Positions 31,797-62,757 are shown, counted from the first letter of the stretch. The stretch is DNA of 64,000 nt from Chthonomonadales bacterium (GCA_013360745.1 JABWBA010000007.1:2945-66944); one strand, 5' to 3'. Notes: generated from the sequence alone by a model not told the origin. Numbers and translations are program-made.

Positions 31797-33853
31797 CGTC
31801 GCGCCTTCTGGGCCTGCTCGTGATCGTGGCGCTGGGCGGCGCCGAGATCAGGGCCGCGGCGCAGGCCGCGCAGGAGCCGTGGACGCACCTCCTCGGCGCG
31901 GTGGGGCTCTCGCGCGAGCGCTGCCGTTTCGACCTGCTGGACATGGCGCAATACGGCGGCGGAGCCTACCGGCTGCCCGCGTTCGTTGCCGTCCATCAGG
32001 ACCCGCTCCGGATCCCAGCCTACGCGCGAATCGCCCGAAACGCCATCAAGGCCAGCTCCCAGCGCCTCGGAGGTCTCGCATCCTACGCCGCAGGCCGCAC
32101 CGACGACGGGACTCGGCTGGACCTCCTCGGCGATCCGCTCGCCGACGATAAAGCGGCCTCGGAGAAGCCAGGGGCCCTCCTCGCTGCCCTCAAGGCCGTC
32201 TGGACCGCCCGGGGAACGGCCCTGCCGAAAGCCGGAGCCGCACGGATCGCCGCCCAGCTGAAGACGGCGCCCGCGCCAATCGCTCGCCTCGCCGCGTTGC
32301 TGATCCGGGTCGAACTCCGCGCCCTGAGGTGGAGAACGCGCGCTCTCCAGCCAATCCCCCATCCGGATGCGGAACGCGTTCTCAAGAGCCTGATGGCGCC
32401 GCCATCCGACAGGGACGACTTCACCGCTGAGATCGAACGGGTCCAGGCAGGCATCGATCAGAAGAGAATGCTGGTTGGCGGCGAGCTCCTCGCCTTCGCG
32501 CTCGATGCCGCCGCCGCCGCGGCGGCGAACTGCGTCCGTGCGGCGCCGTTTCGGGTCGATATCGAGACGCCGATCGGCTGGGTGGCCATACGAGGCGGGG
32601 CGAACGACACCTATCCCGCCGACCGCCCGTACCTCCTCATCCTCGACACCGGCGGCTCCGACACCTACCGGGCCGGCGGGGCCACTCGCGACCTGGACAA
32701 CCCGGTCTCCCTTCTCATCGACCTGGCCGGGAACGATCGGTACATAGCTCCCGGCCTCGACAAAGGCGTCGCCGCCTGTGCCGACCGAAAGAAGGCCGAG
32801 CGAACGCCGGCCTTCGGCGCGGGCTTGCTGGGCTACGGCATGGTCCTCGATGTCGGCGGCAACGACGTCTACCGCGCGATGGGGCGCTGCCAGGGCTCCG
32901 GCTCCTTCGGCGTCGGGATTCTCGCGGATCTCGGCGGCGACGACCTCTACGACTGCCATACGTCGGGCCAGGGAGCCGCCTACTACGGGGTGGGCATCCT
33001 GTCGGACAGGGCCGGAACGGACGAGTACCGCTGCTTCACCACCTCGCAGGGCTACGCCTTCACCCGCGGTTGCGGCCTCCTCGCCGACTACGGCGACGGC
33101 GCCGACCTCTACGACGCGAACGATACCGTCATCGACTTCCCGTCACCCCAATCGGCCGACCACAACGCCAGCCTATCCCAGGGCTTCGGTTTCGGACGGC
33201 GGGCCGACTACACCGACGGTCACTCGCAGGCGGGAGGGATCGGCATCCTCTTCGATCAGGCCGGCGCAAACCGCTTCGTCTGCGGCGTGTTCGGACAGGG
33301 GGCCGGATACTGGTACGGCCTGGGGATGCTGCTGTCCGGCCCAGGCGACGACACCTACACGGGCCAATGGTATGTGCAGGGAAGCGCGGCGCATTTCGCG
33401 GTCGGCATCCTGGACGATCCGGGAGGCAGCGACTCGTACCGCGCCCCGATGAACATGGCGCAGGGCGCAGGCCACGACTTCAGCGTCGGATTTCTCATCG
33501 ATCGGGCCGGCAACGATCGCTACGAAGCCCCGAACCTGTCGCTGGGCGGCGGCAACGCCAACGGCATGGGCTTCTTCTGGGATATGCGCGGGGACGATGT
33601 CTACATCGCGGGCGGCGGGGCGACGATGGGTCGGGCGACCGTCGACGCGAGCGCCGCAGGCAGCCTGCGCGGGCGCAACCTGACCCTGGGCGTGTTCCTC
33701 GACACGGGCGGGAGGGATACCTACCCCGAAACCCTGACCGGAACCGGCGAGAACCGCCTGTGGACGATGGACGGGATGCGCGATGCGCCGCGCCCGATGA
33801 GCCGCGGCGTCGGACTCGATACGGAGGCCGACGTCACGGATGAGATCGCATGA
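31784..33853 (+). CDS. secreted repeat protein of unknown function (13 copies of a G-hydrophobic-L-x-D-x-G-G-x-D-x-Y unit)
   Basis: Start chosen at the ATG at 31784 (MASLTSRLLGLLVIVALGGAEIRAAAQA signal-like leader), overlapping the upstream stop by 13 nt. Its stop overlaps the next gene start (ATGA, 33850-33853). Confidence 0.7.
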   Translation: MASLTSRLLGLLVIVALGGAEIRAAAQAAQEPWTHLLGAVGLSRERCRFDLLDMAQYGGGAYRLPAFVAVHQDPLRIPAYARIARNAIKASSQRLGGLASYAAGRTDDGTRLDLLGDPLADDKAASEKPGALLAALKAVWTARGTALPKAGAARIAAQLKTAPAPIARLAALLIRVELRALRWRTRALQPIPHPDAERVLKSLMAPPSDRDDFTAEIERVQAGIDQKRMLVGGELLAFALDAAAAAAANCVRAAPFRVDIETPIGWVAIRGGANDTYPADRPYLLILDTGGSDTYRAGGATRDLDNPVSLLIDLAGNDRYIAPGLDKGVAACADRKKAERTPAFGAGLLGYGMVLDVGGNDVYRAMGRCQGSGSFGVGILADLGGDDLYDCHTSGQGAAYYGVGILSDRAGTDEYRCFTTSQGYAFTRGCGLLADYGDGADLYDANDTVIDFPSPQSADHNASLSQGFGFGRRADYTDGHSQAGGIGILFDQAGANRFVCGVFGQGAGYWYGLGMLLSGPGDDTYTGQWYVQGSAAHFAVGILDDPGGSDSYRAPMNMAQGAGHDFSVGFLIDRAGNDRYEAPNLSLGGGNANGMGFFWDMRGDDVYIAGGGATMGRATVDASAAGSLRGRNLTLGVFLDTGGRDTYPETLTGTGENRLWTMDGMRDAPRPMSRGVGLDTEADVTDEIA
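32591..33724 (+). repeat. intragenic tandem protein-level repeats (about 25-30 aa period)
   Basis: Motif copies read in the translation: GGANDTY, GGSDTY, AGNDRY, GGNDVY, GGDDLY, AGTDEY, DGADLY, AGANRF, PGDDTY, GGSDSY, AGNDRY, RGDDVY, GGRDTY. Most are preceded by G(I/M/F)L.D. Confidence 0.75.
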
Positions 33854-36800
33854 CCCCCCCGGTGGCGGAACGTACCGCCCTCCGGCGGCCGTCCTGCCGT
33901 CTGCTTACTGCCGCGGCCGTCCTCCTCGGCCTGCTCAGCTCGATGGAGATCACCTTCGGTCAGACGGTGGCGAGGCTCCGGCCTGCGGTCCCGTTGATCC
34001 GAAACGGCGGCTTCGAGACCGATACCGCCTGGAGCCTCTCGCAGTACTCCGAGATCGTGACGGGATCGGCCCGGACCGGCAGGCGCTGCCTGAAGGCGTT
34101 TGGCGATCGGGGCGCATCGGCCGAACAGACTGTCTGGAGCGTCGGGGCGGACCGGACCTATACGGCGTCGGGATGGATCCGAACCGAGGGCGTTCCGTCG
34201 GACCCTCAGGGCTACGCCTTCCTCGCGGTCTATGAGTACGACCGGGGCGGACGATTGGTCCGCTTTCAGGATTACGCCAGAATCACCGGCGATACGCCCT
34301 GGACCCGCTATCACTACACGGTTCGATTGACGGCGGCGACCGATTATCTGACGCTCCGCGCCGGCCTGCACGCGGCCTCCGGGACGGTATGGTTCGACGA
34401 TATTAACCTGACCGCGGGAGGCGAGCCCGCGCCGTGGCAGGAGCCTGCGCCGCAGGCGGACCGCACCCGTACCTATCGCGCGGCGATATTCCATGAGCCG
34501 GGACTGCCCGTCGACGGGTACGCGACACCGGTCGCAACGCTCCGGAAGGGCCTCGCGGCGGAAGGCATCCCCGCCTCCCTACTCACGGCTGCGGACCTTG
34601 CCGCCGGCAAGCTCAACCCCGATGCCTTCGACCTCCTGATCGTCCCAACCGGCGCCTCCTTCCCCATCGCGGCGCGCCGGGGTCTGCTGGGGTTTCTCAT
34701 GGCCGGCGGCGACCTCCTCTGCACGGGGGGATATGCCTTCGACAACCTCCTGGCTCGCGATGACGGCGGCTGGATCTCGTATCGGGAGCGCCTCAAGGAG
34801 GCGCGAACAACCGCCGCGGGCCGGCAGATACCCAACGGGGGTTTTGAGGACGCGACCGGGACCGGATGGGAAGCGGATGGCCCCGCCTGCGCCATCGACG
34901 ACGAGACGGCGGTCTCGGGCAAGCGGAGCGGGCGCGTCCGGATCGATGATCTCGGCTCCGGAGCCCGATGGACGGCGACTCTCGAGGTGGAGCCGGGCAA
35001 AACCTATCTCGTCGGCGCGCACGCCCGGGCGACGAACATCCGGGGCTCCCACTTCGGCTTTCTGGCGGTCTATCAGTATGACGGGGATAACAAGCTGCTG
35101 GAGTTCAAGGACTTCGCCCATCTGACCGGCTCGTCGGATTGGAGGCGGTACGAGACGCCCGTGGCGATCCATCCTGCCGCACGGCGCGTGCTCTTCCACG
35201 CGGGCCTGTACCTCGCGGCGGGCACGCTGAACGTCGATGACGTCACCCTGGGCGCGCTCCCATCCGAGGAGCGGATCAACGCCCATTACGGCACGCCCAT
35301 GGACGGCCTGGTAGTCAGCCCGGTCCAGCTCACCCTTTTCAGCCCGGATCAGCCCCTGACGGGCGTACGGGCGGTGGGCGCCTGGCCGGGCATGGAGGGT
35401 GTCCGGATCGAGGGCGATCTGCGGGGCTTCGACGCAACCGCACAGCTCCGGGAGAGCGGACGCTGGCAGTCGATCCTGACGGCGCAGGACCGCTACGGGC
35501 GGATCTCGGGGTCGGCCGGCGCGCTGGTCACGCATACCACCGGCCCCTTCGGCGGATCCCGCTGGGCGCTGTTCGGCATCACCAACCGGGACATCTTCGC
35601 CGGTCCGGCCGGCCTGACGCTCCTCCGGCGAACGCTCCGGGTCCTTGCCCAGCCGGTCGCAGCCCGATCGCTCACCTCCGACTACGCGCTGTACGAACCG
35701 GGCGAGACCGCCCTGCTGACGCTGGGGCTGCATGCGCCCTCCCGTACCGCGCGCGCCGCTCCGATCACGATCACGCTCACGCTGGACGCCCCGGGCCGCT
35801 CCAGCAAACCGATCGTCCGATTCACGAAGCGCCTGACGCCCGCCTCAGCGATGCCCGCTCGGCTGAGTTTCTCGTGGAAGACGCCGCCATCGGCGCCCGA
35901 CTTCGTCCGGGCCCGTGCGGTTCTCGCCCTCCCGAGCGGCGAGGTGATGGACACGATCGAAACCGGCTTCTGTGTCCGGAGCGGGGCCGTGATCGCCGCC
36001 GGCACACGGATCCGCTTCTCGGATAATGCGTTCGAGCTGCATCGCCCGGGCACGCCTCCGACGCGCACGACCCTGTTCGGCACGGACACCTACGCCAACA
36101 TGTTCCTCTCGCCGTCCTGCAGTCCGCTGACGTGGTACCGGGACCTTCAGGCGATGCGGGCCTACGGGCTGCATATGTACGAGAACCTCCAGTATCCTCC
36201 GGCCGGCTGGACCTACAGCAAGGCGGAATGGAGGCGGATGGACGCGCTGATCCAGCTGTCCCAGCGCTTTGGCCTGCCCTACATGGCAGGCCTCCTGATC
36301 GGCGTGAACGTAGCGGTGGACGATGCGACGCTCGAGGCCCAGGCTCGCATGTGCCGCACGTTCGCCGCGCGATACCGGCATGTCCCCGGTCTGATCTATT
36401 ACCTGAACGGCGACTTCAAGCTGGACCTGGCCGATCTGCCGGATCTCCGCCGACTGTGGAACGAGATGCTGCGCGAGCGCTACGGCACAGATGAGGCGCT
36501 CCGAGCGGCGTGGGGAGGGGAGGCGGCGCCCGAGCGGCTCGGCGAGATCCCTGTCCAGAACCATCGCTCGGACGCGCCGTTCAGCGTCCGGCGACAGGAT
36601 GTGCGGCGCTTCCAGGCGGCTCTCGTCCGGCGCTGGGTCGGGGCGTTGACGGCAGCCATCCGCTCGGAGGATACCGAACACCCGATCACCAGCGAGTTCT
36701 ATCAACGCCCGTACGACGGGATCGACCTCCGGCTGAGTATGGACGGGATGGACGTCGCCAATATCGGCTACTTCGGGCCGCCGCAGGAGGACCTCGCTCA

Positions 36801-38142
36801 GCTCCTGGCGACGATCAAATGGAACGATAGGCGCAGGGACGGCAAGAGCGTCAACATCGGCGAGTTCGGTGTCAAGACCCATGACGCCTGGAAACAGGAG
36901 GGGAACGCGGAAGGCTACCACGTGGGCAGGTCGGAGGAGGAGCAGCGACGCCAGCTCTGGTGGATCGTCCATGCCGCCCTTGCGTTCGATGTCACCAAGA
37001 TCCAGAACTGGTGCTGGTCCGACGATCCGGACCGGGTCTTTCCCTGGGGCGTCGCCTACGTCAACCCGCTCCGCCCCAAGCCGGCGCTCAAGCTCTGGAG
37101 AAACCTGCGGCTCCTCTCCGAGCTCATGCCGCACGCCTATGAGCCGGCTCGAACGGTCTTCGTCATGCCCGATAGCTGGAGGCTGGGCGCCCCGGATGCC
37201 GCGTCATGGCGCTGGGTTGCCAACGCGCTGGAATGGCTCCTCGCCACGAACCTGCGGTTCGACGTCGTCAACGAAGCGGACGTGGGCAACCTCCATCCGA
37301 TCCCGAGGCTCGTCATCGCGCCGCTGACCTCCCGCGCGCCGCAACGCGTCCTGGACCAGCTCGGCGAGCTGGCCCGGTCCGGTGCGACGGTCTACCTATC
37401 GGATCCTCCCGACGCGCTCCTCCACGGCCCCGAACCCGTTCGTCAGGGCTATCACGATCTCCTCGTTCGGGAGCTCGGAACGGGGAGGCTGATCCTGTGC
37501 CCCGGCGCGCCGGAAGCGATGCCGGAAGCCGACCTCTTCGTTCAGCAGCCGGAGCTGGCCTCTGATCCCGAGGTGAACCGCTACCTGGCGCTGCCCGGCC
37601 TCGCGGGCATGGAGCCGGAGATCATCGTGCGCTCCGATCGGGGGCTATGGCGGGCCGCTGCCCGGAGCGCCGAGGGGCGCACCCTGGTCGCCCTCTTCCC
37701 TCGGGGCGCCTATGATGGGAAAGGGCAGGTGGAGGCGGTGTGCCGGGGCCGGCGCATCGTATGGGAGGTGGAGGCAGGATGGCCCTGTCTCGTGGCGCTC
37801 GATCGGGCGGGCGCCGTCATCGGCGCATCCGGAGGCGGGCGGCTCACAGTCGACGGAGTCGAGATCGCCCGGGGCGATGGCCCGTGGATGGCGGCCTCCG
37901 CCGATGGATTGCCGCTGAACCGCTCGAACCGGGTGGTCGGCGCCATGGTGCGGGACGGAGTCCTGACCATCCCGAGCGTCCATGCGCGTCGGGCCGCACA
38001 GGCCGCCGAACTCCGAGACGGCGCCCCCGTGCCGCTCGCCCGGGCCCCGGCCGCAGCCATGGCCCCACGACAGGGAACGGCCATGACGGCGAATGAGCTG
38101 TACCTGATCCGACCTGAGCCTCCGGTCCCATCAGGGCGATGA
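33850..38142 (+). CDS. 1430-aa secreted multidomain glycoside-hydrolase-like protein (two CBM4/9-like modules, GH42-like TIM barrel, GATase1-like modules)
   Basis: Signal-like N-terminus. There are two NGGFE(T/D)...W...G......R.......FDD(I/V)(N/T)L modules. The central region and the VFVMPDSW...RFDVVNEADV...RLVIAPL segment resemble the beta-galactosidase GH42 catalytic and trimerisation domains. Confidence 0.7.
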   Translation: MTPPVAERTALRRPSCRLLTAAAVLLGLLSSMEITFGQTVARLRPAVPLIRNGGFETDTAWSLSQYSEIVTGSARTGRRCLKAFGDRGASAEQTVWSVGADRTYTASGWIRTEGVPSDPQGYAFLAVYEYDRGGRLVRFQDYARITGDTPWTRYHYTVRLTAATDYLTLRAGLHAASGTVWFDDINLTAGGEPAPWQEPAPQADRTRTYRAAIFHEPGLPVDGYATPVATLRKGLAAEGIPASLLTAADLAAGKLNPDAFDLLIVPTGASFPIAARRGLLGFLMAGGDLLCTGGYAFDNLLARDDGGWISYRERLKEARTTAAGRQIPNGGFEDATGTGWEADGPACAIDDETAVSGKRSGRVRIDDLGSGARWTATLEVEPGKTYLVGAHARATNIRGSHFGFLAVYQYDGDNKLLEFKDFAHLTGSSDWRRYETPVAIHPAARRVLFHAGLYLAAGTLNVDDVTLGALPSEERINAHYGTPMDGLVVSPVQLTLFSPDQPLTGVRAVGAWPGMEGVRIEGDLRGFDATAQLRESGRWQSILTAQDRYGRISGSAGALVTHTTGPFGGSRWALFGITNRDIFAGPAGLTLLRRTLRVLAQPVAARSLTSDYALYEPGETALLTLGLHAPSRTARAAPITITLTLDAPGRSSKPIVRFTKRLTPASAMPARLSFSWKTPPSAPDFVRARAVLALPSGEVMDTIETGFCVRSGAVIAAGTRIRFSDNAFELHRPGTPPTRTTLFGTDTYANMFLSPSCSPLTWYRDLQAMRAYGLHMYENLQYPPAGWTYSKAEWRRMDALIQLSQRFGLPYMAGLLIGVNVAVDDATLEAQARMCRTFAARYRHVPGLIYYLNGDFKLDLADLPDLRRLWNEMLRERYGTDEALRAAWGGEAAPERLGEIPVQNHRSDAPFSVRRQDVRRFQAALVRRWVGALTAAIRSEDTEHPITSEFYQRPYDGIDLRLSMDGMDVANIGYFGPPQEDLAQLLATIKWNDRRRDGKSVNIGEFGVKTHDAWKQEGNAEGYHVGRSEEEQRRQLWWIVHAALAFDVTKIQNWCWSDDPDRVFPWGVAYVNPLRPKPALKLWRNLRLLSELMPHAYEPARTVFVMPDSWRLGAPDAASWRWVANALEWLLATNLRFDVVNEADVGNLHPIPRLVIAPLTSRAPQRVLDQLGELARSGATVYLSDPPDALLHGPEPVRQGYHDLLVRELGTGRLILCPGAPEAMPEADLFVQQPELASDPEVNRYLALPGLAGMEPEIIVRSDRGLWRAAARSAEGRTLVALFPRGAYDGKGQVEAVCRGRRIVWEVEAGWPCLVALDRAGAVIGASGGGRLTVDGVEIARGDGPWMAASADGLPLNRSNRVVGAMVRDGVLTIPSVHARRAAQAAELRDGAPVPLARAPAAAMAPRQGTAMTANELYLIRPEPPVPSGR

Positions 38143-38243: not shown

Positions 38244-38573
38244 TCATAGCCTCGTACACTGAGCGATCAGCGTGAAGGGTTCGGTCCTGTGCCGGTCGGC
38301 GTCGGTCACGCTGTAGACTTCGGAGCCCACGGTCAGGCGGTCCCCGGGCTCGACATCCGAATCGTAGGGTAGGAGGATGTTCCAGAGGGTAATCCCTTCG
38401 AGGCCGCCGCCGCCGTCGCTCGTGATCGCCCGCTTGGGGATCACCCGGCAGGGCTCCGATCCGATCGTCACCCACTGGAACGACTGCTGATTGAACCGCT
38501 GGACGGAGGCGGTGTCGGGCATGAGCCGCACAAACGCACGACGGATGGCTTCGATCTCCGCAGGCCTCAACAT
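38244..38573 (-). CDS. head-completion (head-tail adaptor / head-closure-like) small protein
   Basis: 109 aa. The ATG at 38573 (MLRPAEIEAIRR) overlaps the upstream stop by 7 nt. Size, position and the C.VIP...pattern resemble small phage head-closure proteins. The assignment is tentative. Confidence 0.45.
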   Translation of the reverse strand: MLRPAEIEAIRRAFVRLMPDTASVQRFNQQSFQWVTIGSEPCRVIPKRAITSDGGGGLEGITLWNILLPYDSDVEPGDRLTVGSEVYSVTDADRHRTEPFTLIAQCTRL

Positions 38574-39154
38574 GCGTCGCTCCGGATGGCGCGCACGGTG
38601 TCGACCATCTGCCGCGCTCGGAGGGCTGCCGCGAGCTCGAGCAACCTGCCCGCCTGCATACCCCGGGCCAGGGTCTGATCGCCCGATTTGACATCGTATT
38701 CCGTCTTCAGCCCGGCCGCCCAGGCCTCCAGCGCATCCGCGCCCGCACCCGGGAGGTCGTACCGCCGGCCGACGATCGTTACCGGCGGCGGCTGATGGGC
38801 GCTGAAGGTCCAGGCGCCCCGGCGCCAATCGCTGCTCGACGGGCTCAACGCCCCGTAGTCGGCGCCGAACAGGGTCCCGCCCTCTTCCCAGTCGCCTAGC
38901 CAGCTTGCCCAGCCGGTCCGAAGCACGCTCTGGAACAGGTCGGGACGGGCGGCCCTGTACTCCAGGTACGTCACCACACCGCCCTGGCCGATGGTCTCCA
39001 GCGGGATGAGCGAGAGGTACCGATACTCGGTCCGTCGTTGATCGAGGCGCTCCTGAAGCTGCTCATCCGTATAATAGGCGTCATTGCCAGCGGGATCACC
39101 GATCAACAACCGCATCCGATCGATCAGATCCTGCATTGTCGCGCGCACCGCCAT
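38567..39154 (-). CDS. phage structural protein of unknown role (head-tail connector-like N-terminus)
   Basis: 195 aa. The ATG at 39154 lies 9 nt after an AAGGAGG. The N-terminus ATMQDLIDRMRLLIGDPAG..YTDEQLQ..LD resembles connector or minor structural proteins. Confidence 0.45.
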   Translation of the reverse strand: MAVRATMQDLIDRMRLLIGDPAGNDAYYTDEQLQERLDQRRTEYRYLSLIPLETIGQGGVVTYLEYRAARPDLFQSVLRTGWASWLGDWEEGGTLFGADYGALSPSSSDWRRGAWTFSAHQPPPVTIVGRRYDLPGAGADALEAWAAGLKTEYDVKSGDQTLARGMQAGRLLELAAALRARQMVDTVRAIRSDAC

Positions 39155-39191
39155 GCCCAACCTCCTCCTTTCGGAACCCCGGTTCCGCCCT

Positions 39192-40679
39192 CTACCACCA
39201 ACCGCCGACCTTCTGAACGCGGTCCGCCCCCGGCTCGCTGAAGGCGAGGTTCAGCGCGTCCATGTCGTCCGGCGACCGTCCCAATCGCCGTTTCGTCTCA
39301 TGCTTGGGTTCGACCACCCGCCGCCCCTCGCTGTCGAGCCTCCAGCGGGGCGCCATGGCCTGGCGACGCAGGAGTTTGCGCACGTCCTCGGAGAGGTGGC
39401 TCAGGTCGAGATCGCCCCTCGCGGCCCTATCGGCCACAGCGAACCAGAGCTCACTCCTCCTGTTGGGATAGTCGGAGTCCTGTCGCGCACGCGTCCCCGC
39501 CCCACAGCCAACGAAGGCGTGATCGCCCCGCTGATCGACGACTCCGCCCCCGACGCCGTCATCGTCGACCACAACGGTAATGGCTTCGGGCCGCTCTCCC
39601 GTCGCCGCCATCTCGCGACACAGATGCTTGAGCCTGCCGGCCACCTGCGCGGTGTTCCAGCCGTTGTGGGTCTCGTGGTGCAGCGCCCGATCGTCGCGCC
39701 GAACCACGATGCTCGTATAATCATCTCCGTACCGCGCCACGTCGCACCCGATCACCGTCGGCCCCGAGGGGGGGATCGCGGCCAACCGGGGCGCGACGGA
39801 CCGCTCCCAAGCGGCATCGGACCATACCGACGACATGGCCTGGCTCGGCCATCGGCCCAGGACGCGGCTTTCAAAGACCGGTCCCGGCCTCCAGAATCGG
39901 CCCGACCCCGGCGGAAACTCGATGTCGCCGGAACCGAGATCCACGGCGTCGACCGGGCTGCAGTTACGACGGATCTGCTCGTCGATCCAGGACAGCCGGA
40001 CCGCCGACGGGAACGGCGGCGGCTCACCGGCCAGTTCGGCCCTGATGTTCGGGTGGTCCAGGGCGGAGATGCTGATCACGTGGAACCGGCCCGAGATGTC
40101 CTCGTCGTAGGCGCTGCTGGAGGTCTCGGTAGGGTTGCAGATGGCCAGCCAGAGGCACTCATCGCCGGTCATCATCCCTTCCGCCTCTTCCCAGAGCGAT
40201 GGATGGATGCCCACGCACTCGTCGAAGACGATCAGGACCCGCTGCGAATGCCGTCCCTGAAAGGCGGCCTCCCCGCTGGTCGTGAACCCGACGGCGAACC
40301 GCTCGGGCGAGGTCTCCATACGGGGCGACCTTGGCAGCAGCCCGGGCCGCCCCTTTCGCTGGGAGCGCACCTCTTTCCAGAGCACGTCGATCACCTGGCG
40401 CTGGGTGGGCGCCGTGGCGATGGCGATCCCGGGGTCGAAACAGTCGAAATGCCAGTTGATCAGGCCTGCCGCGACGTGGGTCTTCCCGACGGCATGGGAG
40501 GCTTTGACGAGCACCCGGCGATGTCGGAGAAGGGCATCCGCAACCTGACATTGCCGATCCCACCATGTGACTCCGAGCGCTTCGCGGGCATAGAGGACAG
40601 GGTCGGCGCGATAGGCGGCGATACGGGACGTCCTCAAGCCCAGTTCGGACATCTCCTCGATCGCTCCGTCCGTTACCAT
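39192..40679 (-). CDS. phage terminase large subunit
   Basis: Walker A ASHAVGKT, Walker B VLIVFDEC, and the nuclease-domain block VIGCDVARYGDDYTSIVV. 495 aa, with a GGGAGG 10 nt upstream of the ATG. Confidence 0.85.
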   Translation of the reverse strand: MVTDGAIEEMSELGLRTSRIAAYRADPVLYAREALGVTWWDRQCQVADALLRHRRVLVKASHAVGKTHVAAGLINWHFDCFDPGIAIATAPTQRQVIDVLWKEVRSQRKGRPGLLPRSPRMETSPERFAVGFTTSGEAAFQGRHSQRVLIVFDECVGIHPSLWEEAEGMMTGDECLWLAICNPTETSSSAYDEDISGRFHVISISALDHPNIRAELAGEPPPFPSAVRLSWIDEQIRRNCSPVDAVDLGSGDIEFPPGSGRFWRPGPVFESRVLGRWPSQAMSSVWSDAAWERSVAPRLAAIPPSGPTVIGCDVARYGDDYTSIVVRRDDRALHHETHNGWNTAQVAGRLKHLCREMAATGERPEAITVVVDDDGVGGGVVDQRGDHAFVGCGAGTRARQDSDYPNRRSELWFAVADRAARGDLDLSHLSEDVRKLLRRQAMAPRWRLDSEGRRVVEPKHETKRRLGRSPDDMDALNLAFSEPGADRVQKVGGWW

Positions 40680-40803
40680 CCGCCAGCGCCTCCCGCCCCA
40701 TCACTCCATGCCCCATCACATCGCCGTGCAACCACTCGACGCCGCAGCGAGGCCCAAACGCTGGTATCGCGTCGGCGACGGCATGGGCCGAACCGTTCGC
40801 CCC

Positions 40804-41172
40804 TTACACGCCGTCGGGCAGTTGAAACGCCATCACCTTGCCGGTCATCCCGGTCTCAAAGTCCAGCCAGATCGCGCCGTCCGCCTGCACGAACCGGGCC
40901 GACTCGAGGGTCAAGTACCGAACCCCCGAGGTGGCCGGCACCGTAATCGACAGGTCTCCCAACCCCTGGCGGAAGGCGGGAGGATTCGCTCCGGCCTTCA
41001 CGACCACGGCATGGTCCGCGCCGTGGGTGTTGGTCACTCGGATGATCAGCCTGCGCGTGCTCCCTCCTGCCGGGATCGTCGCTCCGTTCGCGGGAGCGAT
41101 AGTCGTCCCCGCCGGTTCCGCCACTCCTCCTGATGCCGCGAGGGCCGTCACCGTCACGCTATCTCTTGCCAT
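40804..41172 (-). CDS. phage hypothetical protein downstream of the capsid gene (possible capsid accessory or decoration protein)
   Basis: 122 aa with a GAGGAG site upstream. The pattern RRLIIRVTNTHGADHAVVVKAGANPPAFRQGLGDL recurs in proteins encoded next to capsid genes. This is from recollection, not a search. Confidence 0.45.
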   Translation of the reverse strand: MARDSVTVTALAASGGVAEPAGTTIAPANGATIPAGGSTRRLIIRVTNTHGADHAVVVKAGANPPAFRQGLGDLSITVPATSGVRYLTLESARFVQADGAIWLDFETGMTGKVMAFQLPDGV

Positions 41173-41243
41173 ACCTTCTCCTCTCTTTCAAGCATCGGGA
41201 GTGCCCGCTCGCGATCTGCGATGGGGCGCTCCCCTCATCGATC

Positions 41244-42095
41244 TCAGCTCTTGCTCGCCACGAGACAGGCCAGGGCCGTCGGGCGCAGGACTCTCGCGCC
41301 GTAGAGATGCAGCGCCTTGACCGCGTCGGCGAATCGGAGCGGAGGCCGATAGGCCTCCACTTCCCGGATCTGATGGGCGTAGGTCCACGCGGCCGGAACG
41401 CCAGCGATCACCTTGAACTTGGCCCCGTCCGTGTTGGCGACGTTGTTGGAGACGTAGATCGTCATACCGGCGGCCATCCCCACTTCGCCGTTGCGAAGGG
41501 TCTGATCGCCCATCGGGGTGCCCGATTTGACGAATCGGTCGTCCTTGAGCAGCAGGCCGTAGCACCACGGCGGAAGCACGCAGAACCGCCCGTGTCGGGG
41601 CGCGTTCGCCTCATCCAGCTTGACGCCGAGTTCGACGATGTACTCATAGAGCGCTGCCGCCGTGGGCGTTTTCGGCGATGCATCGCTGCCGATGAAGTTG
41701 GCGGGGGCGATCTGCGTATGGAGCCCTGCAAGGAACCGGTCCGCCTCATCGGCCAGCGCATAGGCCGTTTCGCGCATGGCGGCATCCATCACATGCGGCA
41801 TCTGCTGGGCGCGATCCACATCGTCGATCTGGAAGTTGACGTAGCGGGCGCGGTCGATGGTCAACACCGTTTCCGCGTCGGTCAACGTCTCGGGCGGCGT
41901 GATGTCGGCATTGACGGCATAGTCGGCCACGGTCACCGCTCCGATGGCGTGGATCCGCACAGCATCGCCCCAGGCACGGATATCCCCTTCGTAGTCATGG
42001 TTCATCACTCCGCGCTGGCCGAAGACGAGCGCCTTGTGGAGGTTGTGGAGCAGTCGGGCTGCCCATACCTCCGGGATGAAGTTGTTCAAGCTCAT
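41244..42095 (-). CDS. major capsid protein (P22-coat / HK97-fold family)
   Basis: 283 aa. The N-terminus MSLNNFIPEVWAARLL...N.DYEGDI...GD.V.I is the hallmark of the P22 coat-protein-like family. An AAGGAGG lies 5 nt upstream of the ATG. Confidence 0.85.
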   Translation of the reverse strand: MSLNNFIPEVWAARLLHNLHKALVFGQRGVMNHDYEGDIRAWGDAVRIHAIGAVTVADYAVNADITPPETLTDAETVLTIDRARYVNFQIDDVDRAQQMPHVMDAAMRETAYALADEADRFLAGLHTQIAPANFIGSDASPKTPTAAALYEYIVELGVKLDEANAPRHGRFCVLPPWCYGLLLKDDRFVKSGTPMGDQTLRNGEVGMAAGMTIYVSNNVANTDGAKFKVIAGVPAAWTYAHQIREVEAYRPPLRFADAVKALHLYGARVLRPTALACLVASKS

Positions 42096-42155
42096 CGTAT
42101 CCTCCTTATCTCACGCCCCGAGGCCCGAAGGCCGGGAGTTCGCCGCGGATCGGTC

Positions 42156-42566
42156 TCAGATGCCCGTGCGGAGGGCCGCAACCACGGCGTCCCACTGGGC
42201 GTTGATCTCGTCACTCGTCATGCGTCGGATGGCCTCCCGGGTGAGCCGCCGGCCGCCGCCCCCTGAAGGGTTCGTCGGGCTGACCGCAGCCTCGGAGGCC
42301 GTAGCGCCCTCCATACGGAGCCAGGGACGCTCGGCAATGAGATCCCGCAGCAGGGCCTCGACGTTCCGAGGTCGGCCCGCGTCATCCCATTGGAGTCGGT
42401 CGGTATCCAGCAGCCGGTAGGCCGCATCCTCATCGACGATGCCCATACGCCGGGCGGTACGCTCGATCTCCAGCCTGCCTTCAAGCGCTCGGGCCCGTTC
42501 CTCAGCGGCACGGGCCCGATCCTCGACGGTTGGCTCAGCGGCTTTCGCCGCTCCCTGCTCATCCAT
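42156..42566 (-). CDS. phage scaffolding protein
   Basis: 136 aa, immediately upstream of the capsid gene. It has a charged coiled-coil N-terminus (EDRARAAEERARALEGRLEIERTARRMGI) and a DUF4355-like layout. Confidence 0.6.
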   Translation of the reverse strand: MDEQGAAKAAEPTVEDRARAAEERARALEGRLEIERTARRMGIVDEDAAYRLLDTDRLQWDDAGRPRNVEALLRDLIAERPWLRMEGATASEAAVSPTNPSGGGGRRLTREAIRRMTSDEINAQWDAVVAALRTGI

Positions 42567-42936
42567 CTCTCACCTCCACTGCCGCCTCCATGGACAGGGT
42601 CGCCTCCCAGGACCAGGCGCCCGATCCGAGCTCGACGCCTCGTGAGGAGGCCACGACAGTCCCATCATCCGCCCTCATCTGCACCCATCGGGCTCCCACA
42701 CCGGCGCTGGCAAAACGGGCGATCAACGCCGTCCTCTGGGCCTCCGTCAGGAGCGTGCTGCAGCCGTACCAGTCCGGCGCATCGGCCACCGCCGTCTGAT
42801 CCCTGAGCGGGACGCCGAACATCCGCGATTCGTCATTGCCGCCGGGCAGGACCTCCGCCGCCGCCCGACCTGCACGGTCCAGCGCCCCGGACGGGATCAG
42901 GCAATGGACGCGCCAGATATACTCCGTCTCAGCCAT
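42559..42936 (-). CDS. phage hypothetical protein
   Basis: 125 aa from the ATG at 42936 (MAETEYIW). A GGGAGGG lies 7 nt upstream, directly after the LamG gene stop. Its stop overlaps the scaffold start by 8 nt. Confidence 0.5.
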   Translation of the reverse strand: MAETEYIWRVHCLIPSGALDRAGRAAAEVLPGGNDESRMFGVPLRDQTAVADAPDWYGCSTLLTEAQRTALIARFASAGVGARWVQMRADDGTVVASSRGVELGSGAWSWEATLSMEAAVEVRDG

Positions 42937-42950
42937 CCGTCGTCCCTCCC

Positions 42951-43742
42951 TTAGCCGTCCATCCATCGCCTGAGATAGGCAGCCAGAGCCCGCCGTTCCG
43001 CGGCGCCGATGACTCTGGCGACCACTACCCAGGCCCCGATGATCCCTTTGAACGGATAGAGGACCGATCCGGCGCGTTCGACGCCGCCCATCACGAACCG
43101 ATCCAACGTCGTTGCGCCGACGTCCAGGGCGCCGGACGCCTCCGAAACCCCGTCGATCGCGGTGCGCGCGATCACGCCCGGCATCTCGCCGAAGGTAACC
43201 ACGACCGCCTGCGCCTGATTCACCGCCGACGCGGGGCCGGCCACCGAGGAGGAGCTCGACGCGTCATCCCTCCGATAATGGGACAGGGAGGTCCCTGTCG
43301 CCGTGGAATAGAGCATCGCATAGGGCGTGCCCGTGGCCGAGTTGCCCAGTCCGAAGACGGTGCGGTAGGCCGTATCGGTCACCTTGAAGGCGATGCCGAC
43401 CGTAAACGGGACATCGTTGCCGCTGAAAACCGCCCCGAGCGAGGCTAGCACGAGCCGATCGTCCACGCCGTCGAAGGAGAGGCCTCCACGGCCCGATGGA
43501 AACGCGGAGGCGACGCGCGTCGGCTTCATCGCCAGCGTCGCCTGGGCGCCGGTATGTCCCTGACCCGATCGATCGGGCACGCCGCCGACCGGATCCCCGA
43601 CCGAGGCGGGCGCGGTCAGCCCCGGATCCTGATAGAGATCGCCATCGCACTCCGACCATGCCTGAAGTCCGGCCAGCGCCGCCGGGGTCCACCCCGAGCC
43701 GACGCCGCCCAGGGTCATACCGAGACCGATGCCCCGACCCAT
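42951..43742 (-). CDS. LamG / concanavalin-A-like lectin domain protein (candidate spike fibre or receptor-binding protein)
   Basis: LSFDGVDDRLVL...FTVGIAFKV...RFVMGG...FKGIIGAWVVVARVIGAAERRAL is the Laminin_G_3 pattern, with a Gly-rich N-terminus. It starts 1 nt after the upstream stop. Confidence 0.6.
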   Translation of the reverse strand: MGRGIGLGMTLGGVGSGWTPAALAGLQAWSECDGDLYQDPGLTAPASVGDPVGGVPDRSGQGHTGAQATLAMKPTRVASAFPSGRGGLSFDGVDDRLVLASLGAVFSGNDVPFTVGIAFKVTDTAYRTVFGLGNSATGTPYAMLYSTATGTSLSHYRRDDASSSSSVAGPASAVNQAQAVVVTFGEMPGVIARTAIDGVSEASGALDVGATTLDRFVMGGVERAGSVLYPFKGIIGAWVVVARVIGAAERRALAAYLRRWMDG

Positions 43743-43743
43743 C

Positions 43744-44001
43744 TCAGTAGAGACCCACGATGTTGGATGCGGTCGTACCGGCAGCGTACACTCGACGGGC
43801 TCGAACCGGCAGCACGCCCACCGGCACGTTCGCGAACGTAACGGTCTCGCCTCCCCAGGTGTCCATCTTCACATCGCCGCCCGTGCCGACGTACAGGGCG
43901 AGCGCCCACGAGCTCAGATCAGCGGCGTCGTTGGGCGTAATGGCGAACGCGTGCTCGGCAGGGTCCGCCATCTGGCTCTGTCGTCCCGCATAGGCGCCCA
44001 T
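43744..44001 (-). CDS. small spike-base-like protein (resembles the RcGTA Rcc01079 head-spike-base family)
   Basis: 85 aa with the pattern ITPNDAADL....ALYVGTGGDV......G..VTFANVP.G.LP.R..RV.A.GTTA.NIVGL, recalled from that family. Not verified by a search. Confidence 0.5.
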   Translation of the reverse strand: MGAYAGRQSQMADPAEHAFAITPNDAADLSSWALALYVGTGGDVKMDTWGGETVTFANVPVGVLPVRARRVYAAGTTASNIVGLY

Positions 44002-44210
44002 CAGCGCAGTTCCCGAAGGTCGCGCTCAACCGGAGCCCAGAGTGCGCGCAACATTGCCGCATGGGCCGCCAGCAGCGGATCGGATACGCACACAGCCTCA
44101 AGGCGCCGGCGGACGCCCTCATCTCCCATCGCATCGTCAAAGGCGTGTTTGAAGATGTCCCAGTCCACCAGCAGCCTGGTGACCGTTCGCAACCGTCTCA
44201 ACCAGATCAT
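44001..44210 (-). CDS. phage hypothetical small protein
   Basis: 69 aa from the ATG at 44210 (MIWLRRL). There is an ATGA overlap with the upstream ORF and a TGATG overlap with the downstream ORF. Confidence 0.45.
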   Translation of the reverse strand: MIWLRRLRTVTRLLVDWDIFKHAFDDAMGDEGVRRRLEAVCVSDPLLAAHAAMLRALWAPVERDLRELR

Positions 44211-44425
44211 TCCGTTCTCCCTTCCTCCGCTATCCGTACAGCCGTCCTCTCCTCCGATGGCGGCGGCCCGGGCTCTCGTCGGGCGTAGCCGTTGGAGAAC
44301 TTCCCAACAACGAAACCGATCAGCGTCATCACCGCCCCTCCGAGGACCGCGCTCCGATCCTCCGGGGCAAAGACGTAGAGAACCGCCAGCAGCGCCGTCA
44401 GACACGCCGCCACATAGACCTGCAT
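44207..44425 (-). CDS. small two-TM membrane protein (holin-like topology)
   Basis: 72 aa from the ATG at 44425 (MQVYVAACLTALLAVLYVF...VMTLIGFVVG), sharing one base with the portal stop (TGATG). A longer form could start at 44446. Confidence 0.5.
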   Translation of the reverse strand: MQVYVAACLTALLAVLYVFAPEDRSAVLGGAVMTLIGFVVGKFSNGYARREPGPPPSEERTAVRIAEEGRTE

Positions 44426-45699
44426 CAAGTGGAATCGTCCGGGCACCCGCCTTCGCTCCTTTCCGCCAATCCGAGCCGCCGCAGGGCGGCCTCAGAGCTC
44501 ATGCCGAGATCCCGGTAGAGCAGAGCCGTTCGTGCCTCTTCCAGGGGATCGGTCGGGGCCACCGACGGCCATTCGATCTCGATGCCGGCAGGCTCGTAGC
44601 CGCCCATCTCCAGAAGTCGACGGCTGGCCTCGACGAGCAGCTCACCGTAGAGCATCCTCTTCGTCATGGTCTTTTCCATGAGCGGTTGATAGAGCAGCCT
44701 CAGCGCCACCCCCGAGAGCCGCCCCAGACCCTGGAGCGAGCTGGCGGCGTGAGCCGGCACCCTCGCGGTCTCATGCAGCGCTTCCAGGAGGCGCGCATAC
44801 AGGTCCATCGAGGATCCGAGGTCTCCCTGCATCTCGAGCAAATGGAGGGCCGCGTCCCGCTGCGGCAGGATCGTCACCTCATCGGGCCCGAGCGAGAGGC
44901 CTTCCGCCGAAAAGCCGTGGCCCCACATCTTCGGATGGGCATGAAAGCGGAGGATGCGGGCCGCATTGGACAGGACGAAATCGATGGAACGGCAGAGCGC
45001 CAGCACATCCGGCTCCAGATCGCTCCGGCCCCAGTACTCATTTGCCGCTGGCAAGTTCTGACAACCCAGCACGGGTGACCACGGGAACGGCCAGATCTCC
45101 GCCGCCGTGGTATGCCATCGGACGTCGTCCCCATCCGAGCGTTGATCGAGGATCGTCCAGCCCTGTGCGTCGCGCCGACGGTCGATCAGCTGCCGGAAGG
45201 CCGCCGCCCTTCCCGACACCGGGTCGATCCCGTCCCAGAGGATCTCATAGCGGACGATGCGTTCCCAATCGTCGGGCTCCCATCGGACCTGAACCGTCAT
45301 CGGATCCAGGATGATCAAGCGGGGCATGCCGCCGTGGATCGCCGGCCGTGCCATCTTCAGGAAGGCTTGCCCGCATACCGCGCCGTTGGTCACGAGGCGA
45401 TGGAGCAGTGTCGCCTTGCGATTGGCCGTCCATGCCGATTGCAGCCATCGGGACGCCGCTGCTGGCAGAGCCTCGTCCGGCCGAATCGATACGCCGCCGC
45501 CCACGAGGAAACTCACGCCGCTATCAACAATATAACGGGCGTAGTTGACCCGTACATTGTCGTCCGGGGCGCCCGGCCGGATGCGCAGCGGCCCGGGCGT
45601 ATCGCCATGATACGCGGCCCAGGCGGCGCGCATCCGCTCGCGTCGGGCGGCTTCCTCCATGGCGGCTTGATGGATGACCCTGTCGCTAACCGAAACCAC
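44425..45699 (-). CDS. phage portal protein
   Basis: 424 aa, first gene of the cluster, with SPP1-Gp6-like N-terminal blocks (NYARYIVDSGVSFLVG, LHRLV.NG.VCGQAFLK). GTG start with an AAGGAGG 9 nt upstream. Confidence 0.8.
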   Translation of the reverse strand: MVSVSDRVIHQAAMEEAARRERMRAAWAAYHGDTPGPLRIRPGAPDDNVRVNYARYIVDSGVSFLVGGGVSIRPDEALPAAASRWLQSAWTANRKATLLHRLVTNGAVCGQAFLKMARPAIHGGMPRLIILDPMTVQVRWEPDDWERIVRYEILWDGIDPVSGRAAAFRQLIDRRRDAQGWTILDQRSDGDDVRWHTTAAEIWPFPWSPVLGCQNLPAANEYWGRSDLEPDVLALCRSIDFVLSNAARILRFHAHPKMWGHGFSAEGLSLGPDEVTILPQRDAALHLLEMQGDLGSSMDLYARLLEALHETARVPAHAASSLQGLGRLSGVALRLLYQPLMEKTMTKRMLYGELLVEASRRLLEMGGYEPAGIEIEWPSVAPTDPLEEARTALLYRDLGMSSEAALRRLGLAERSEGGCPDDST

Positions 45700-45757: not shown

Positions 45758-45799
45758 AGAAAACGGTAAAAAGGAAAGGACCGCCCGAAGGCGGTCCTT
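45758..45799 (-). terminator. intrinsic terminator of the DUF3467 gene, insulating the phage-like cluster
   Basis: Perfect 10-bp stem AAGGACCGCC / GGCGGTCCTT (45776-45785 and 45790-45799) with a CGAA loop. On the minus strand it is followed by TCCTTTTTACCGTTTTC. Confidence 0.65.
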
Positions 45800-46134: not shown

Positions 46135-46371
46135 GGGAAGCCTCCCGCAGGGTATAGTCAGCGCCAAGCAAGGCATTCTACCCGATTGCGGCCTCGAGGC
46201 CTAGTGCGGCTCCATAGTATACATGCGTCTACATCATCGTTTGTCTCATCGCCGGTGTGCAGCGGCTCCAACGCATGGGAGGCGCCGTGCTGGGGAGGTC
46301 ACGAGTGCGCCGTTCGGCGACGACGGATGCGGCAGATCATCCTCGATGAGCGATCCCGGCGCGGCCATGAT

Positions 46372-61632: not shown

Positions 61633-62757
61633 TCACAGGCAGAACCGTTCGATCCTTCCTGCCTCGACTCGGAACAGGCCCGCCTGCGACAGGATCTCAT
61701 CGGGAAAACCGCGCAGGTTGGTGCAGGTGATGAACGTCTGACAACGCCCGCTCAGCCGACGAAGCAGCCTGCGGCGACGCTGATCGTCCAGATCCGACAT
61801 CACATCGTCCAGCAGCAGAACCGGTTCTTCGCCGCTGACCGCCTCGATATAGTCCAGTTCCGCCAGTTTTATACTCAGGACGACGGTCCGCTGCTGCCCC
61901 TGCGAGCCGTAGACCCGAGCTTCAAGGCCATTGATCGCGAACCTCAGGTCGTCTCTCTGAGGACCGGCCAGCGTGGTGCCGCGCCGTAGTTCCTCCTCCG
62001 CAACCCGCTGCAGGGCCTCTTCGTACCGCTCCTTTGCGAGCTCCGGCCCGTCGTCCGCCTGCAGCGATGGATTCGGATGGTAATGAACGCTGAGATCCTC
62101 CGCGCCGTCGCTGAGCTCCCGATGCGATTGACCGGCCAGTTCCGACATCTCCTGCACAAAGTCCCGCCGATGCAGGAGCAATCCGATCCCGTACCGGACG
62201 AGCTGGGACGTCCATGCATCGAGACCGCTGTTGGCCGACCATCGTTCACGGAGAGACTTCAGGAGCTTATTGCGCTGCAGCAGGATCCGTTTGTATGCGC
62301 CGAGGTCCTGCAGGTAGGGCAGGGATGTCTGGGCTAGGGCAAGGTCCATATGCCGGCGTCGACAGGAAGGTTCTCCGGTGATCAGCCTGAGATCCTGCGC
62401 GGCAAACACGACCGCGCGCAGAACACCCAGAAGATCGACGGCGCGCTCGGTGGACGCGGCGTTGATGGAGGCGTGTTTCTGTTCACTTCGGCCTAGAGTA
62501 AGCGCGATCCTGGCGGAGCTGCCGTCGCTCTGTCGGACCGTCGCTGAGGCCCTGGACTGGCTCTGACCGCTCTGGATGACTTCCGTGTCGCGGACGGTGC
62601 GGAAGCTCTTCGTCGTCGCAAGCATGTAGATCGCTTCGAGCAGGTTGCTTTTTCCCTGGGCGTTGTCGCCGACGAGGATATTGACCCCGGGGACGGGCTC
62701 AACATGCAGGCTCGGATAGTTCCGAAATCGGTCTAGGGAGATCTCTTCGATGAGCAT
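61633..62757 (-). CDS. recF: DNA replication and repair protein RecF
   Basis: L..FRNY, Walker A GDNAQGKSNLLEA, the signature GSQGQQRT and Walker B LLLDDV.SDLD. Confidence 0.95.
   Translation of the reverse strand: MLIEEISLDRFRNYPSLHVEPVPGVNILVGDNAQGKSNLLEAIYMLATTKSFRTVRDTEVIQSGQSQSRASATVRQSDGSSARIALTLGRSEQKHASINAASTERAVDLLGVLRAVVFAAQDLRLITGEPSCRRRHMDLALAQTSLPYLQDLGAYKRILLQRNKLLKSLRERWSANSGLDAWTSQLVRYGIGLLLHRRDFVQEMSELAGQSHRELSDGAEDLSVHYHPNPSLQADDGPELAKERYEEALQRVAEEELRRGTTLAGPQRDDLRFAINGLEARVYGSQGQQRTVVLSIKLAELDYIEAVSGEEPVLLLDDVMSDLDDQRRRRLLRRLSGRCQTFITCTNLRGFPDEILSQAGLFRVEAGRIERFCL

Follow-up and report, generated by a model that had tools for sequence, protein, structure and literature searches.

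Domesticated phage elements are, to our knowledge, either whole particles, as in gene transfer agents (GTAs), or tails alone, as in tailocins and extracellular contractile injection systems (eCIS), and capsid-only elements are known to us only as selfish mobile satellites, the phage-inducible chromosomal islands that form capsids (cf-PICIs). What, then, is the nature of a set of phage head genes that lies among the genes of a Chthonomonadales bacterium and has no recognisable tail gene in the surrounding sequence? The set is found in a stretch of 64,000 nucleotides (GCA_013360745.1 JABWBA010000007.1:2945-66944), analysed here at its full length and called the window. At positions 38244-45699 it comprises 12 open reading frames (ORFs), all on the minus strand and in the same orientation, with products of 424, 79, 69, 85, 263, 125, 136, 283, 122, 495, 195, and 109 aa. 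Together with an upstream gene for a DUF3467 protein they form a unit, the cassette, which opens with the promoter-like region of DUF3467 (~46232) and closes where the 109-aa gene has its stop codon (38244). Its order, from 5' to 3', is DUF3467, portal, 79-aa protein, 69-aa protein, spike base, LamG fibre, 125-aa protein, scaffold, capsid, 122-aa protein, large terminase (TerL), 195-aa protein, and 109-aa protein. We conclude that the cassette is very probably a maintained, vertically inherited head-only module. That it is, further, a host-domesticated phage module, a GTA-like viriform working by the whole of the mechanism proposed below, is a reading that we favour with moderate confidence.

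Conservation and inheritance of the cassette

Independent gene calls on identical public contigs, one of which belongs to the metagenome-assembled genome (MAG) GCA_013328875.1 ("Chthonomonadales bacterium", phylum Armatimonadota), give the same set of 12 ORFs. The genes are tightly packed, with five junctions that overlap by 1 to 22 nt, and most of the genes have ribosome-binding sites of the AGGAGG type. The G+C content at third codon positions (GC3) is 0.73-0.84 in the cassette genes and 0.72-0.87 in the surrounding host genes, so that the two are indistinguishable. An initial annotation of the window, made by reading the sequence, had described 12 intact ORFs, strong Shine-Dalgarno sites before five of them, and, by eye, host-like third positions, and had taken the whole for a maintained, domesticated module and not for a fresh prophage or debris. 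The ORF check, the gene calls, and the GC3 values agree with it on the ORFs and third positions, the Shine-Dalgarno sites are as it described them, and synteny, intact ORFs, dN/dS, and GC3 support its interpretation.

In a scan of species-representative genomes the cassette turned up in four more species of Chthonomonadales, including one with the label Chthonomonas calidirosea, and further lineages came from a metagenome scan and from IMG/VR. The complete cassette, in the same order and with undisrupted ORFs, is present in loci L013-L016, L018-L025, and L047, which represent at least six other Chthonomonadales lineages; order and intactness were judged in loci of sufficient length, and in every locus long enough to judge the ORF lengths are near-identical. 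Nei-Gojobori dN/dS is 0.04-0.25 for the closest pair (L015 and L016, dS 0.35-1.2) and about 0.0-0.5 across all genes and all pairs, and because dS values of 0.5-2 are partly saturated these ratios are rough, over- rather than underestimated. Among the observations that the initial annotation had named as speaking against its interpretation are frameshifts or dN/dS near 1 in orthologues and a complete prophage at this position in relatives. All orthologous ORFs are intact with ratios in the range just given, and no such prophage was seen, the complete phage relatives lying elsewhere.

The upstream flank, made of parB, parA, and DUF3467, is common to the window and at least eight loci. Across species, the pairwise identities of ParA and ParB correlate with those of the portal (Spearman rho 0.89 and 0.93, respectively) and of the LamG fibre (0.82). 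Since species pairs are not independent, p-values of these correlations carry no meaning; the pattern fits co-divergence. Downstream of the 109-aa gene one finds a gene for a 1430-aa CBM/GH42-like protein in the window, a HEAT-repeat protein and a GH4 enzyme in L015, and an ECF sigma factor and a VWA protein in L011, and in all three the cassette ends alike at the head-closure gene. The neighbourhood has been reshuffled by rearrangements that spared the cassette. In conclusion, because of its conserved and intact synteny, low dN/dS, host-like GC3, and co-divergence with parA and parB, the cassette is a vertically inherited and selectively maintained module, neither debris nor a mobile satellite.

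The window also contains dnaA (62998-63945, minus strand), recF (61633-62754, minus strand), dciA, parB, and parA, and its cumulative GC skew has a minimum at ~62 kb. From the position of dnaA and recF and the turn of the skew, the window includes the region of the replication origin, and the cassette is ~16-24 kb from oriC, where it is transcribed with the replication fork. The convergent neighbour on the other side (33850-38142, plus strand), which codes for the 1430-aa protein, has a signal-peptide-like hydrophobic N-terminus (judged by eye), CBM_4_9-like repeats, and a GH42-like region, and its CBM part weakly resembles a PHROG annotated as "minor tail protein" (5e-6). As it is not conserved beside the cassette in other species, this gene is treated here as a host gene. 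The initial annotation had regarded both flanks as ordinary host genes; this can be kept for the convergent gene and has to be abandoned for DUF3467, which precedes every cassette found, including those of the second type described below.

Head proteins and their phage relatives

Two complete phage relatives, the phage contig L012 and the Armatimonadota prophage L008, share the portal, scaffold, capsid, 122-aa, 195-aa, and head-closure proteins with the cassette, at 28-66% identity, and carry on into genes for tail completion, tube, tape measure, and distal tail (Dit). A larger comparison set consists of the 77 IMG/VR loci with a homologue of the 195-aa protein, 31 of which extend downstream for 6 kb or more. 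In 29 of the 31 this homologue is followed by an ORF of at least 600 aa, mostly at a distance of 2.5-4.3 kb, which is the position of the tape measure. The cassette stops where the tail-side neck proteins start in phages (HK97-gp10-like and gp17-like proteins in L012).

Profile scans with Pfam, PHROGs, and NCBIfam over 13 proteins (the 12 cassette ORFs and DUF3467; Table 1) detected no integrase, repressor, replication protein, small terminase (TerS), protease, tape measure, tube, sheath, baseplate, or endolysin in the cassette, and none of these classes appears among the gene calls within 10 kb on either side. This agrees with the list of missing phage functions in the initial annotation. Homologues of the tail proteins of the related phages are absent from the entire 64-kb window, and no att-like direct repeats flank the cassette. 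One ORF of the window matches phrog_382 ("minor tail protein with lysin activity"), but the source of this match is probably a host enzyme similar to beta-lactamases and not a tail gene. The ORF in question (8763-10001, minus strand), 28 kb from the cassette, resembles beta-lactamases and SxxK serine hydrolases, matches 112 Mycobacterium phage records, and looks host.

The initial annotation had identified the portal, the P22-coat capsid, TerL, and the scaffold, and Pfam and PHROGs bear out all four, the scaffold match being weak in the window and clear in an orthologue. Scaffold homologues precede the capsid gene in 51 of the 77 related phage loci. The capsid protein is 55% identical to that of Aeribacillus phage AP45 and, in the window, 76-82% identical to its orthologues. 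A homologue of the 122-aa protein comes after the capsid gene in L012, L008, and 23 of the 77 loci. In L011 (975-981) this gene is missing and TerL begins 6 nt past the capsid gene, the remaining cassette being intact; the 122-aa protein is hence accessory and dispensable. In TerL, neither the Walker A and Walker B motifs nor the three nuclease Asp motifs vary across all cassettes and phage relatives, and the enzyme is predicted to be catalytically intact. It is 72-74% identical to its orthologues, 54-61% to the TerL of other long IMG/VR viral contigs, and 33% to the TerL of the second cassette type (type B), and BLAST shows no relationship to the TerL of L012 or to that of L009, a divergent cassette. 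A sequence search of the PDB with TerL gave no match.

The two last genes had been called head-completion-like. For the 109-aa protein this holds, as its family includes phage homologues with PF05521 and three of its nine members match PHROGs annotated as "head closure Hc1" (phrog_501 and phrog_25). The 195-aa protein is placed in the neck by synteny, with no fold match: in complete phages its homologues, found in 79 IMG/VR loci, lie between the 122-aa (capsid-accessory) gene and the head-closure gene. Its AlphaFold2 model (pLDDT 79, from a 5-sequence alignment) has no significant Foldseek match, tail or other. PDB profile searches with the 195-aa, 109-aa, and 122-aa families and with DUF3467 returned nothing meaningful, the Kelch matches of the 109-aa family being repeat artefacts. 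On its predicted products, the cassette encodes all that a scaffold-dependent, protease-free head of the SPP1/P22 type needs, including closure of the portal.

The cassette is nevertheless not simply a truncated prophage. None of the 77 phage loci carries DUF3467, the 79-aa protein with two transmembrane (TM) segments, the 69-aa protein, the spike base, the LamG fibre, the 125-aa protein, or this TerL. As read from its genes it is a rebuilt mosaic, made of a siphovirus head backbone, a cassette-specific portal-scaffold block that replaces the MuF-type region of the phages, and a terminase of another lineage inserted after the 122-aa gene. The SPP1-like siphoviruses whose capsid is of the P22-coat type (Aeribacillus phage AP45, phage D6E, and the uncultured L012 and L070-L077) have homologues of the six backbone proteins (30-65%) in the same relative order. 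However, in these phages TerS and TerL stand upstream of the portal, the minor head protein is of the MuF type, and a complete tail module including a tape measure is present, as are lysis and replication genes. The seven cassette genes missing from the 77 loci (DUF3467 to TerL) are missing from them as well. A single match to Rfam, to CRISPR-DR20, is below threshold (24.9 bits, E 0.12; 40741-40781, minus strand), and no array is present. It falls into the 124 nt that separate TerL from the 122-aa gene; this spacer folds as a long imperfect hairpin (-52.6 kcal/mol) and is probably a structured junction left by the insertion of TerL.

Table 1. Features of the cassette in the window, from 5' to 3', followed by the coordinates of three type-B loci.
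Feature	Coordinates	Strand	Evidence
Promoter-like region and 5' leader upstream of DUF3467	46141..46232	-	Alignment of upstream regions, 10 loci
DUF3467 protein, 93 aa	45853..46134	-	PF11950 3e-11
Intrinsic-terminator-like hairpin	45768..45799	-	10-bp GC-rich stem, TTCG loop, T-run; between DUF3467 and portal gene
Portal, 424 aa, SPP1 gp6-like	44425..45699	-	PF05133 1.5e-16; phrog_64 9e-21; orthologues 58-62% identical
79-aa protein, two hydrophobic segments and charged C-terminal tail	44207..44446	-	Hydropathy; no family match
69-aa conserved helical protein	44001..44210	-	Orthologues 69-75% identical; dN/dS 0.08-0.35; no family match
Predicted head-spike base, 85 aa, RcGTA Rcc01079 family	43744..44001	-	NF048002 1.2e-30 (above 28-bit cut-off); phrog_12296 1.3e-24
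Predicted head-spike fibre, 263 aa, LamG/ConA-like domain	42951..43742	-	phrog_10356 (virion structural) 1e-12; 62%-identical orthologue with PF13385 Laminin_G_3
125-aa protein, fastest-evolving member	42559..42936	-	Orthologues 40-46% identical; dN/dS 0.17-0.50; no family match
Scaffolding protein, 136 aa	42156..42566	-	Weak PF06810 3e-4; phrog_194 weak; orthologue clearly matches PF06810
Major capsid protein, 283 aa, P22-coat/N4-gp56-type HK97 fold	41244..42095	-	phrog_267 8e-71; PF25209 (Phage_capsid_4)
122-aa beta-rich accessory head protein	40804..41172	-	phrog_24894 1.7e-30
Large terminase (TerL), 495 aa	39192..40679	-	phrog_2 1.4e-31
195-aa neck protein, probable head-to-tail adaptor	38567..39154	-	Position/synteny; phrog_1732 (PHROG of no assigned function)
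Head-closure (stopper, Hc1-type) protein, 109 aa, last cassette gene	38244..38573	-	Phage homologues with PF05521 Phage_HCP; weak PF05354
Type-B locus L045	8096-20009
Type-B locus L046	7741-20294
Type-B locus L069	7900-17619

Spike block, putative control region, and cassette variants

The initial annotation had called the 85-aa protein spike-base-like and had seen a LamG domain in the 263-aa protein, and both identities are confirmed by profile matches, the second through an orthologue. NCBIfam names the family of the former "spike base protein, RCAP_Rcc01079 family". In RcGTA, the Rhodobacter capsulatus GTA, Rcc01079 pentamers on the capsid pentons each hold one Rcc01080 fibre by its N-terminal peptide IALGLGLGL (residues 2-10), and the fibres bind capsular polysaccharide (PMC7296036). 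The fibre gene of the cassette starts 1 nt past the spike-base gene, and its product has GIGLGMTLGGV at the N-terminus. Orthologues have AIGIGIRAG, ALGLGVRLG, SIGLTLGLT, or VGLGIGLTG, and the alternation of hydrophobic residues and Gly is kept in nine of them. As both the base family and the N-terminal motif of the fibre match, we read the pair as a putative penton spike of the RcGTA type and, on this likeness, have not adopted the tail-fibre label that PHROGs attaches to phrog_12296. No LamG fibre homologue was found in cultured phages.

Of the small proteins between portal and scaffold, the 79-aa protein appears holin-like in topology, and its N-terminal 58 aa are conserved at 76-83%. The 69-aa protein was considered as an equivalent of the small terminase and rejected, since it has no homology to the small helical protein found upstream of the type-B TerL.

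DUF3467, its promoter-like region, and the terminator-like hairpin are the constant part of the element. DUF3467 is far more conserved than any other cassette member: among the loci with the gene order of the window (type A) its identity is 85-92%, the window and the type-B locus L026 share 86%, and dN/dS is 0.00-0.11. In type-A and type-B loci alike the portal gene follows it immediately, with the exception of L009 (where a helix-turn-helix (HTH) protein and TerL intervene) and L031 (two small genes between). It is also kept before the cassette in L014, where the upstream neighbours have changed, and in the variants L009, L048, and the P0139 contig. The AlphaFold2 model of DUF3467 (pLDDT 84; three strands, then a long and a short helix) has no significant match in PDB or BFVD by Foldseek. 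Its best sub-significant matches are PC4/Sub1-like binders of single-stranded DNA (TM-score ~0.45, E 0.46) and uncharacterised phage proteins (E 0.02). None of the cultured phages encodes it.

Upstream of DUF3467 one finds, in the window, a -10-like TAGAAT (46174-46179) and, in relatives, TTGACGG-N17-GGTACACT; the leader, GCTGACTATACCCTGCGGGAGG, is conserved as well. L014 has kept this region despite a different upstream host flank, and the region's conservation suggests a promoter. A second motif, GTAGACG-N4-TATACTAT (46214-46232 in the window), lies in the intergenic region between the divergent parA and DUF3467 genes. It is present in 9 of the 10 aligned loci (not in L009), including L014, which lacks parA, and could be a promoter element or the binding site of a regulator. 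The hairpin was found at the same position in 13 of 14 folded loci, in both cassette types and with differing stem sequences; L038 has no clear one. Between hairpin and portal start there is no conserved promoter, and in L014 the gap is only ~20 nt. Because there is no room for a promoter past the hairpin, transcripts that start at the DUF3467 promoter presumably reach the head operon, through read-through or antitermination.

When metagenomes were scanned with DUF3467 as the seed, the second cassette type, type B, came to light in L026, L029-L033, L042, L045, L046, and L069. Its order is small helical protein, TerL, DUF3467, Mu-type portal, 330-aa protein, cement-like 138-aa protein, 339-aa capsid, small ORFs, LamG protein, and host genes. 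Type B, whose loci L026, L029-L032, L045, L046, and L069 are assigned to other Chthonomonadales, resembles the window in the succession of DUF3467, terminator hairpin, and portal, in the TerL family, in the presence of a LamG protein, and in having host genes on both sides. Its head, in contrast, is of an unrelated lineage (Mu-type portal, 339-aa capsid of phrog_1005, and cement-like 138-aa protein), and TerL and the small helical protein lie upstream of DUF3467. No gene of tape-measure size was found in type-B loci. One of these loci is on a 1.4-Mb contig, and L069 comes from a MAG labelled Chthonomonadales. Two have inserted host genes (Pol IV, epimerase, HigBA), and their phage-derived ORFs are still intact.

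Other variants depart further from the window. In the P0139/P0041 contig (ERZ1426680) and in L048 (1-5665) a type-A-like cassette without TerL consists of DUF3467, portal, small ORFs, scaffold, capsid, neck, and head closure, followed by unrelated genes. On the P0139 contig no TerL is found within 10 kb upstream or ~2 kb downstream of the cassette; its terminase must therefore either lie at another place in the genome or have been lost. By implication, parts of the system can be provided in trans. A third arrangement is that of L009 (3676-11799; GCA_020849275.1, a Chthonomonadales MAG), with DUF3467, a 141-aa HTH protein, a TerL of another family, portal, a 72-aa protein, a 612-aa protein with a GDSL-lipase domain, spike base, scaffold, capsid, neck, head closure, and a host ferritin-like gene. 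Here the HTH protein is a candidate TerS, and the spike fibre appears to have been replaced by an esterase-type protein. L047 (IMGVR_UViG_3300045117_000484) is a whole 8.6-kb contig, and its cassette has been entered in IMG/VR as an uncultivated viral genome.

Nature and possible function of the predicted particle

The cassette shares with GTAs that it is a chromosomal, phage-derived structural cluster without integration, replication, or lysogeny genes, inherited vertically and under purifying selection. RcGTA is similar in each of these respects, in lacking immunity genes, and in having TerL, portal, capsid, and neck in one operon. Its spike base is homologous (NF048002), and its fibre carries the same kind of hydrophobic/Gly docking peptide at the N-terminus. 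Yet the main cluster of RcGTA encodes a whole tail (tube, tape measure, distal tail, hub, and megatron), of which nothing is found in the cassette, and a complete tailed particle is encoded neither in the cassette, nor in the 64-kb window, nor beside any relative examined. The RcGTA capsid is of the HK97 type and uses a protease, whereas that of the cassette is a P22-type coat with scaffold and no protease. Apart from the spike base, RcGTA proteins have no detectable homology to the cassette, and an ordered series of g2-g15 homologues is not found. RcGTA is under GafA/CtrA control, whereas the cassette, which belongs to the phylum Armatimonadota, has DUF3467 and a terminator upstream and no recognisable TerS.

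The cf-PICIs are mobile islands of 10-15 kb with integrase, AlpA-type regulator, primase-replicase, TerS, HNH, and protease genes (PMC10085698). Experiments have shown that the capsids which they release are filled with DNA but tail-less and acquire phage tails afterwards, a process called tail piracy (10.1101/2025.02.11.637232). Like the cassette, a cf-PICI such as EcCIEDL933 has its own TerL, portal, capsid, and head-tail adaptor and connector and no tail genes, the adaptor of the cassette being assigned from synteny only. Unlike the cf-PICIs, the cassette has no detectable integrase, AlpA/MerR-type regulator, primase-replicase, TerS, HNH, or prohead protease. It is fixed near oriC, has co-diverged with its host, lacks att sites, and has a capsid of another lineage and head spikes. 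Since its inheritance and spike are GTA-like with no local tailed particle, and the mobile half of a cf-PICI is absent, we file the cassette, known here from its genes alone, in neither family and regard it as a head-only domesticated variant, like a cross of both. Our literature searches turned up no account of an element like this one, no GTA from Armatimonadota (or Chthonomonas), and no role for DUF3467.

For the host-domesticated, GTA-like viriform we propose the following mechanism. Transcription would start at the DUF3467 promoter and be mostly halted at the conserved terminator, and the translationally coupled head operon, reached by read-through or antitermination, would be expressed at a low level or conditionally. 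Procapsids would assemble on the portal, TerL would pack headful amounts of largely non-specific cellular DNA without a recognisable small terminase, and the 195-aa and 109-aa proteins would seal the portal. The spikes would bind glycans at the cell surface, and the two-TM protein may aid release. Delivery of DNA would need a tail in trans, provided by an unlinked chromosomal locus or, through tail piracy, by a siphovirus that infects the cell or resides in it; failing this, the particles would act without tails. The three mechanisms suggested by the initial annotation, a minimal GTA, a tail-borrowing capsid former, and a tail-less particle, are all live options.

Several points weigh against this interpretation. 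All genomes compared are MAGs or metagenome contigs, and with dS partly saturated the dN/dS values are approximate. The upstream flank differs in L014, L009, and the P0139 contig, and hence some relocation has occurred. The search for tails covered 64 kb of this genome, and tail, lysin, and TerS genes could lie elsewhere in it. The adaptor role of the 195-aa protein is a probable one, deduced from synteny, the read-through control is deduced from the lack of space for a promoter, and the sealed, spike-decorated, and DNA-filled heads are a product predicted from the genes.

A more specific proposal, which we advance tentatively and place well short of an even chance, is that the cassette is a capsid-only viriform, the mirror image of a tailocin. 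Its sealed, lectin-spiked, and DNA-filled heads would become infectious only by capturing the tails of ambient siphoviruses, or would deliver or present DNA without a tail. The system would be gated by DUF3467 and the read-through terminator, a hitherto uncharacterised module that would have persisted through an exchange of the head genes between two unrelated phage lineages.

Rather unlikely, in our opinion, is a multi-locus GTA in the style of RcGTA, of which the cassette would be the head locus, with a conserved tail locus, lysis genes, and regulators elsewhere, and whose tailed particles would transfer random host DNA. We know of no GTA in which all tail genes are apart from the head genes, and no tail homologue lies in the 64-kb window or within 10 kb of any cassette examined. 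However, RcGTA is itself multi-locus, the locus tags rcc01079 and rcc01080 being far from main-cluster genes (cf. rcc01685), and the cassette has a spike base of the same family. The TerL-less relative (none within 10 kb upstream or ~2 kb downstream) has its genes dispersed, and the neck and head-closure proteins, which normally receive a tail, are kept under selection.

The particles could also be an anti-phage decoy, host-owned heads, portal, and terminase competing for the tails or packaging substrates of infecting siphoviruses, as satellites do against helper phages. The backbone is 45-65% identical to real phages of the same environments, which makes cross-interaction between neck and tail plausible, and the biology of cf-PICIs shows that foreign heads hijack tails (10.1101/2025.02.11.637232). 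The cf-PICI EcCIEDL933, on the other hand, has a negligible effect on the fitness of its helper phage (PMC10085698), PADLOC gave no match to a defence family, and no sensor or regulator is evident. Lectin-type head spikes, moreover, better suit particles that need to find cells, and we consider a decoy improbable.

A mobile satellite similar to a cf-PICI, which excises, replicates, and packages itself, is largely refuted and highly improbable. The packaging half of such satellites agrees in content (TerL, portal, capsid, adaptor, connector, and no tails; PMC10085698), and one cassette has an IMG/VR entry as a viral contig (L047). But integrase, regulator, primase-replicase, TerS, and att repeats were not found, the chromosomal position is constant, with co-divergence with parAB, and host genes are inserted within type-B cassettes. 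The least credible possibility is an inert prophage remnant with deleted tail and lysogeny modules: the backbone is clearly of SPP1-like siphovirus origin, but the remnant is refuted by conservation (intact ORFs in every lineage, dN/dS far below 1, and identical boundaries across species at dS above 1) and by the acquisition of a foreign TerL and a spike block, unless all loci are recent transfers, against which co-divergence with parAB argues.

If the cassette is a head-only module kept by the host over a span of order-level evolution in Chthonomonadales, which are soil and hot-spring bacteria, GTA-like biology would extend to Armatimonadota. DUF3467, a widespread domain, would also gain a consistent genomic context for the first time. 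Surveys are likely to take such loci for proviruses, whose counts they inflate; L047 already has an entry as a virus in IMG/VR. Finally, if our reading is true, it suggests that tail piracy or tail-less capsids can be a trait of the host and not only a trick of parasites.

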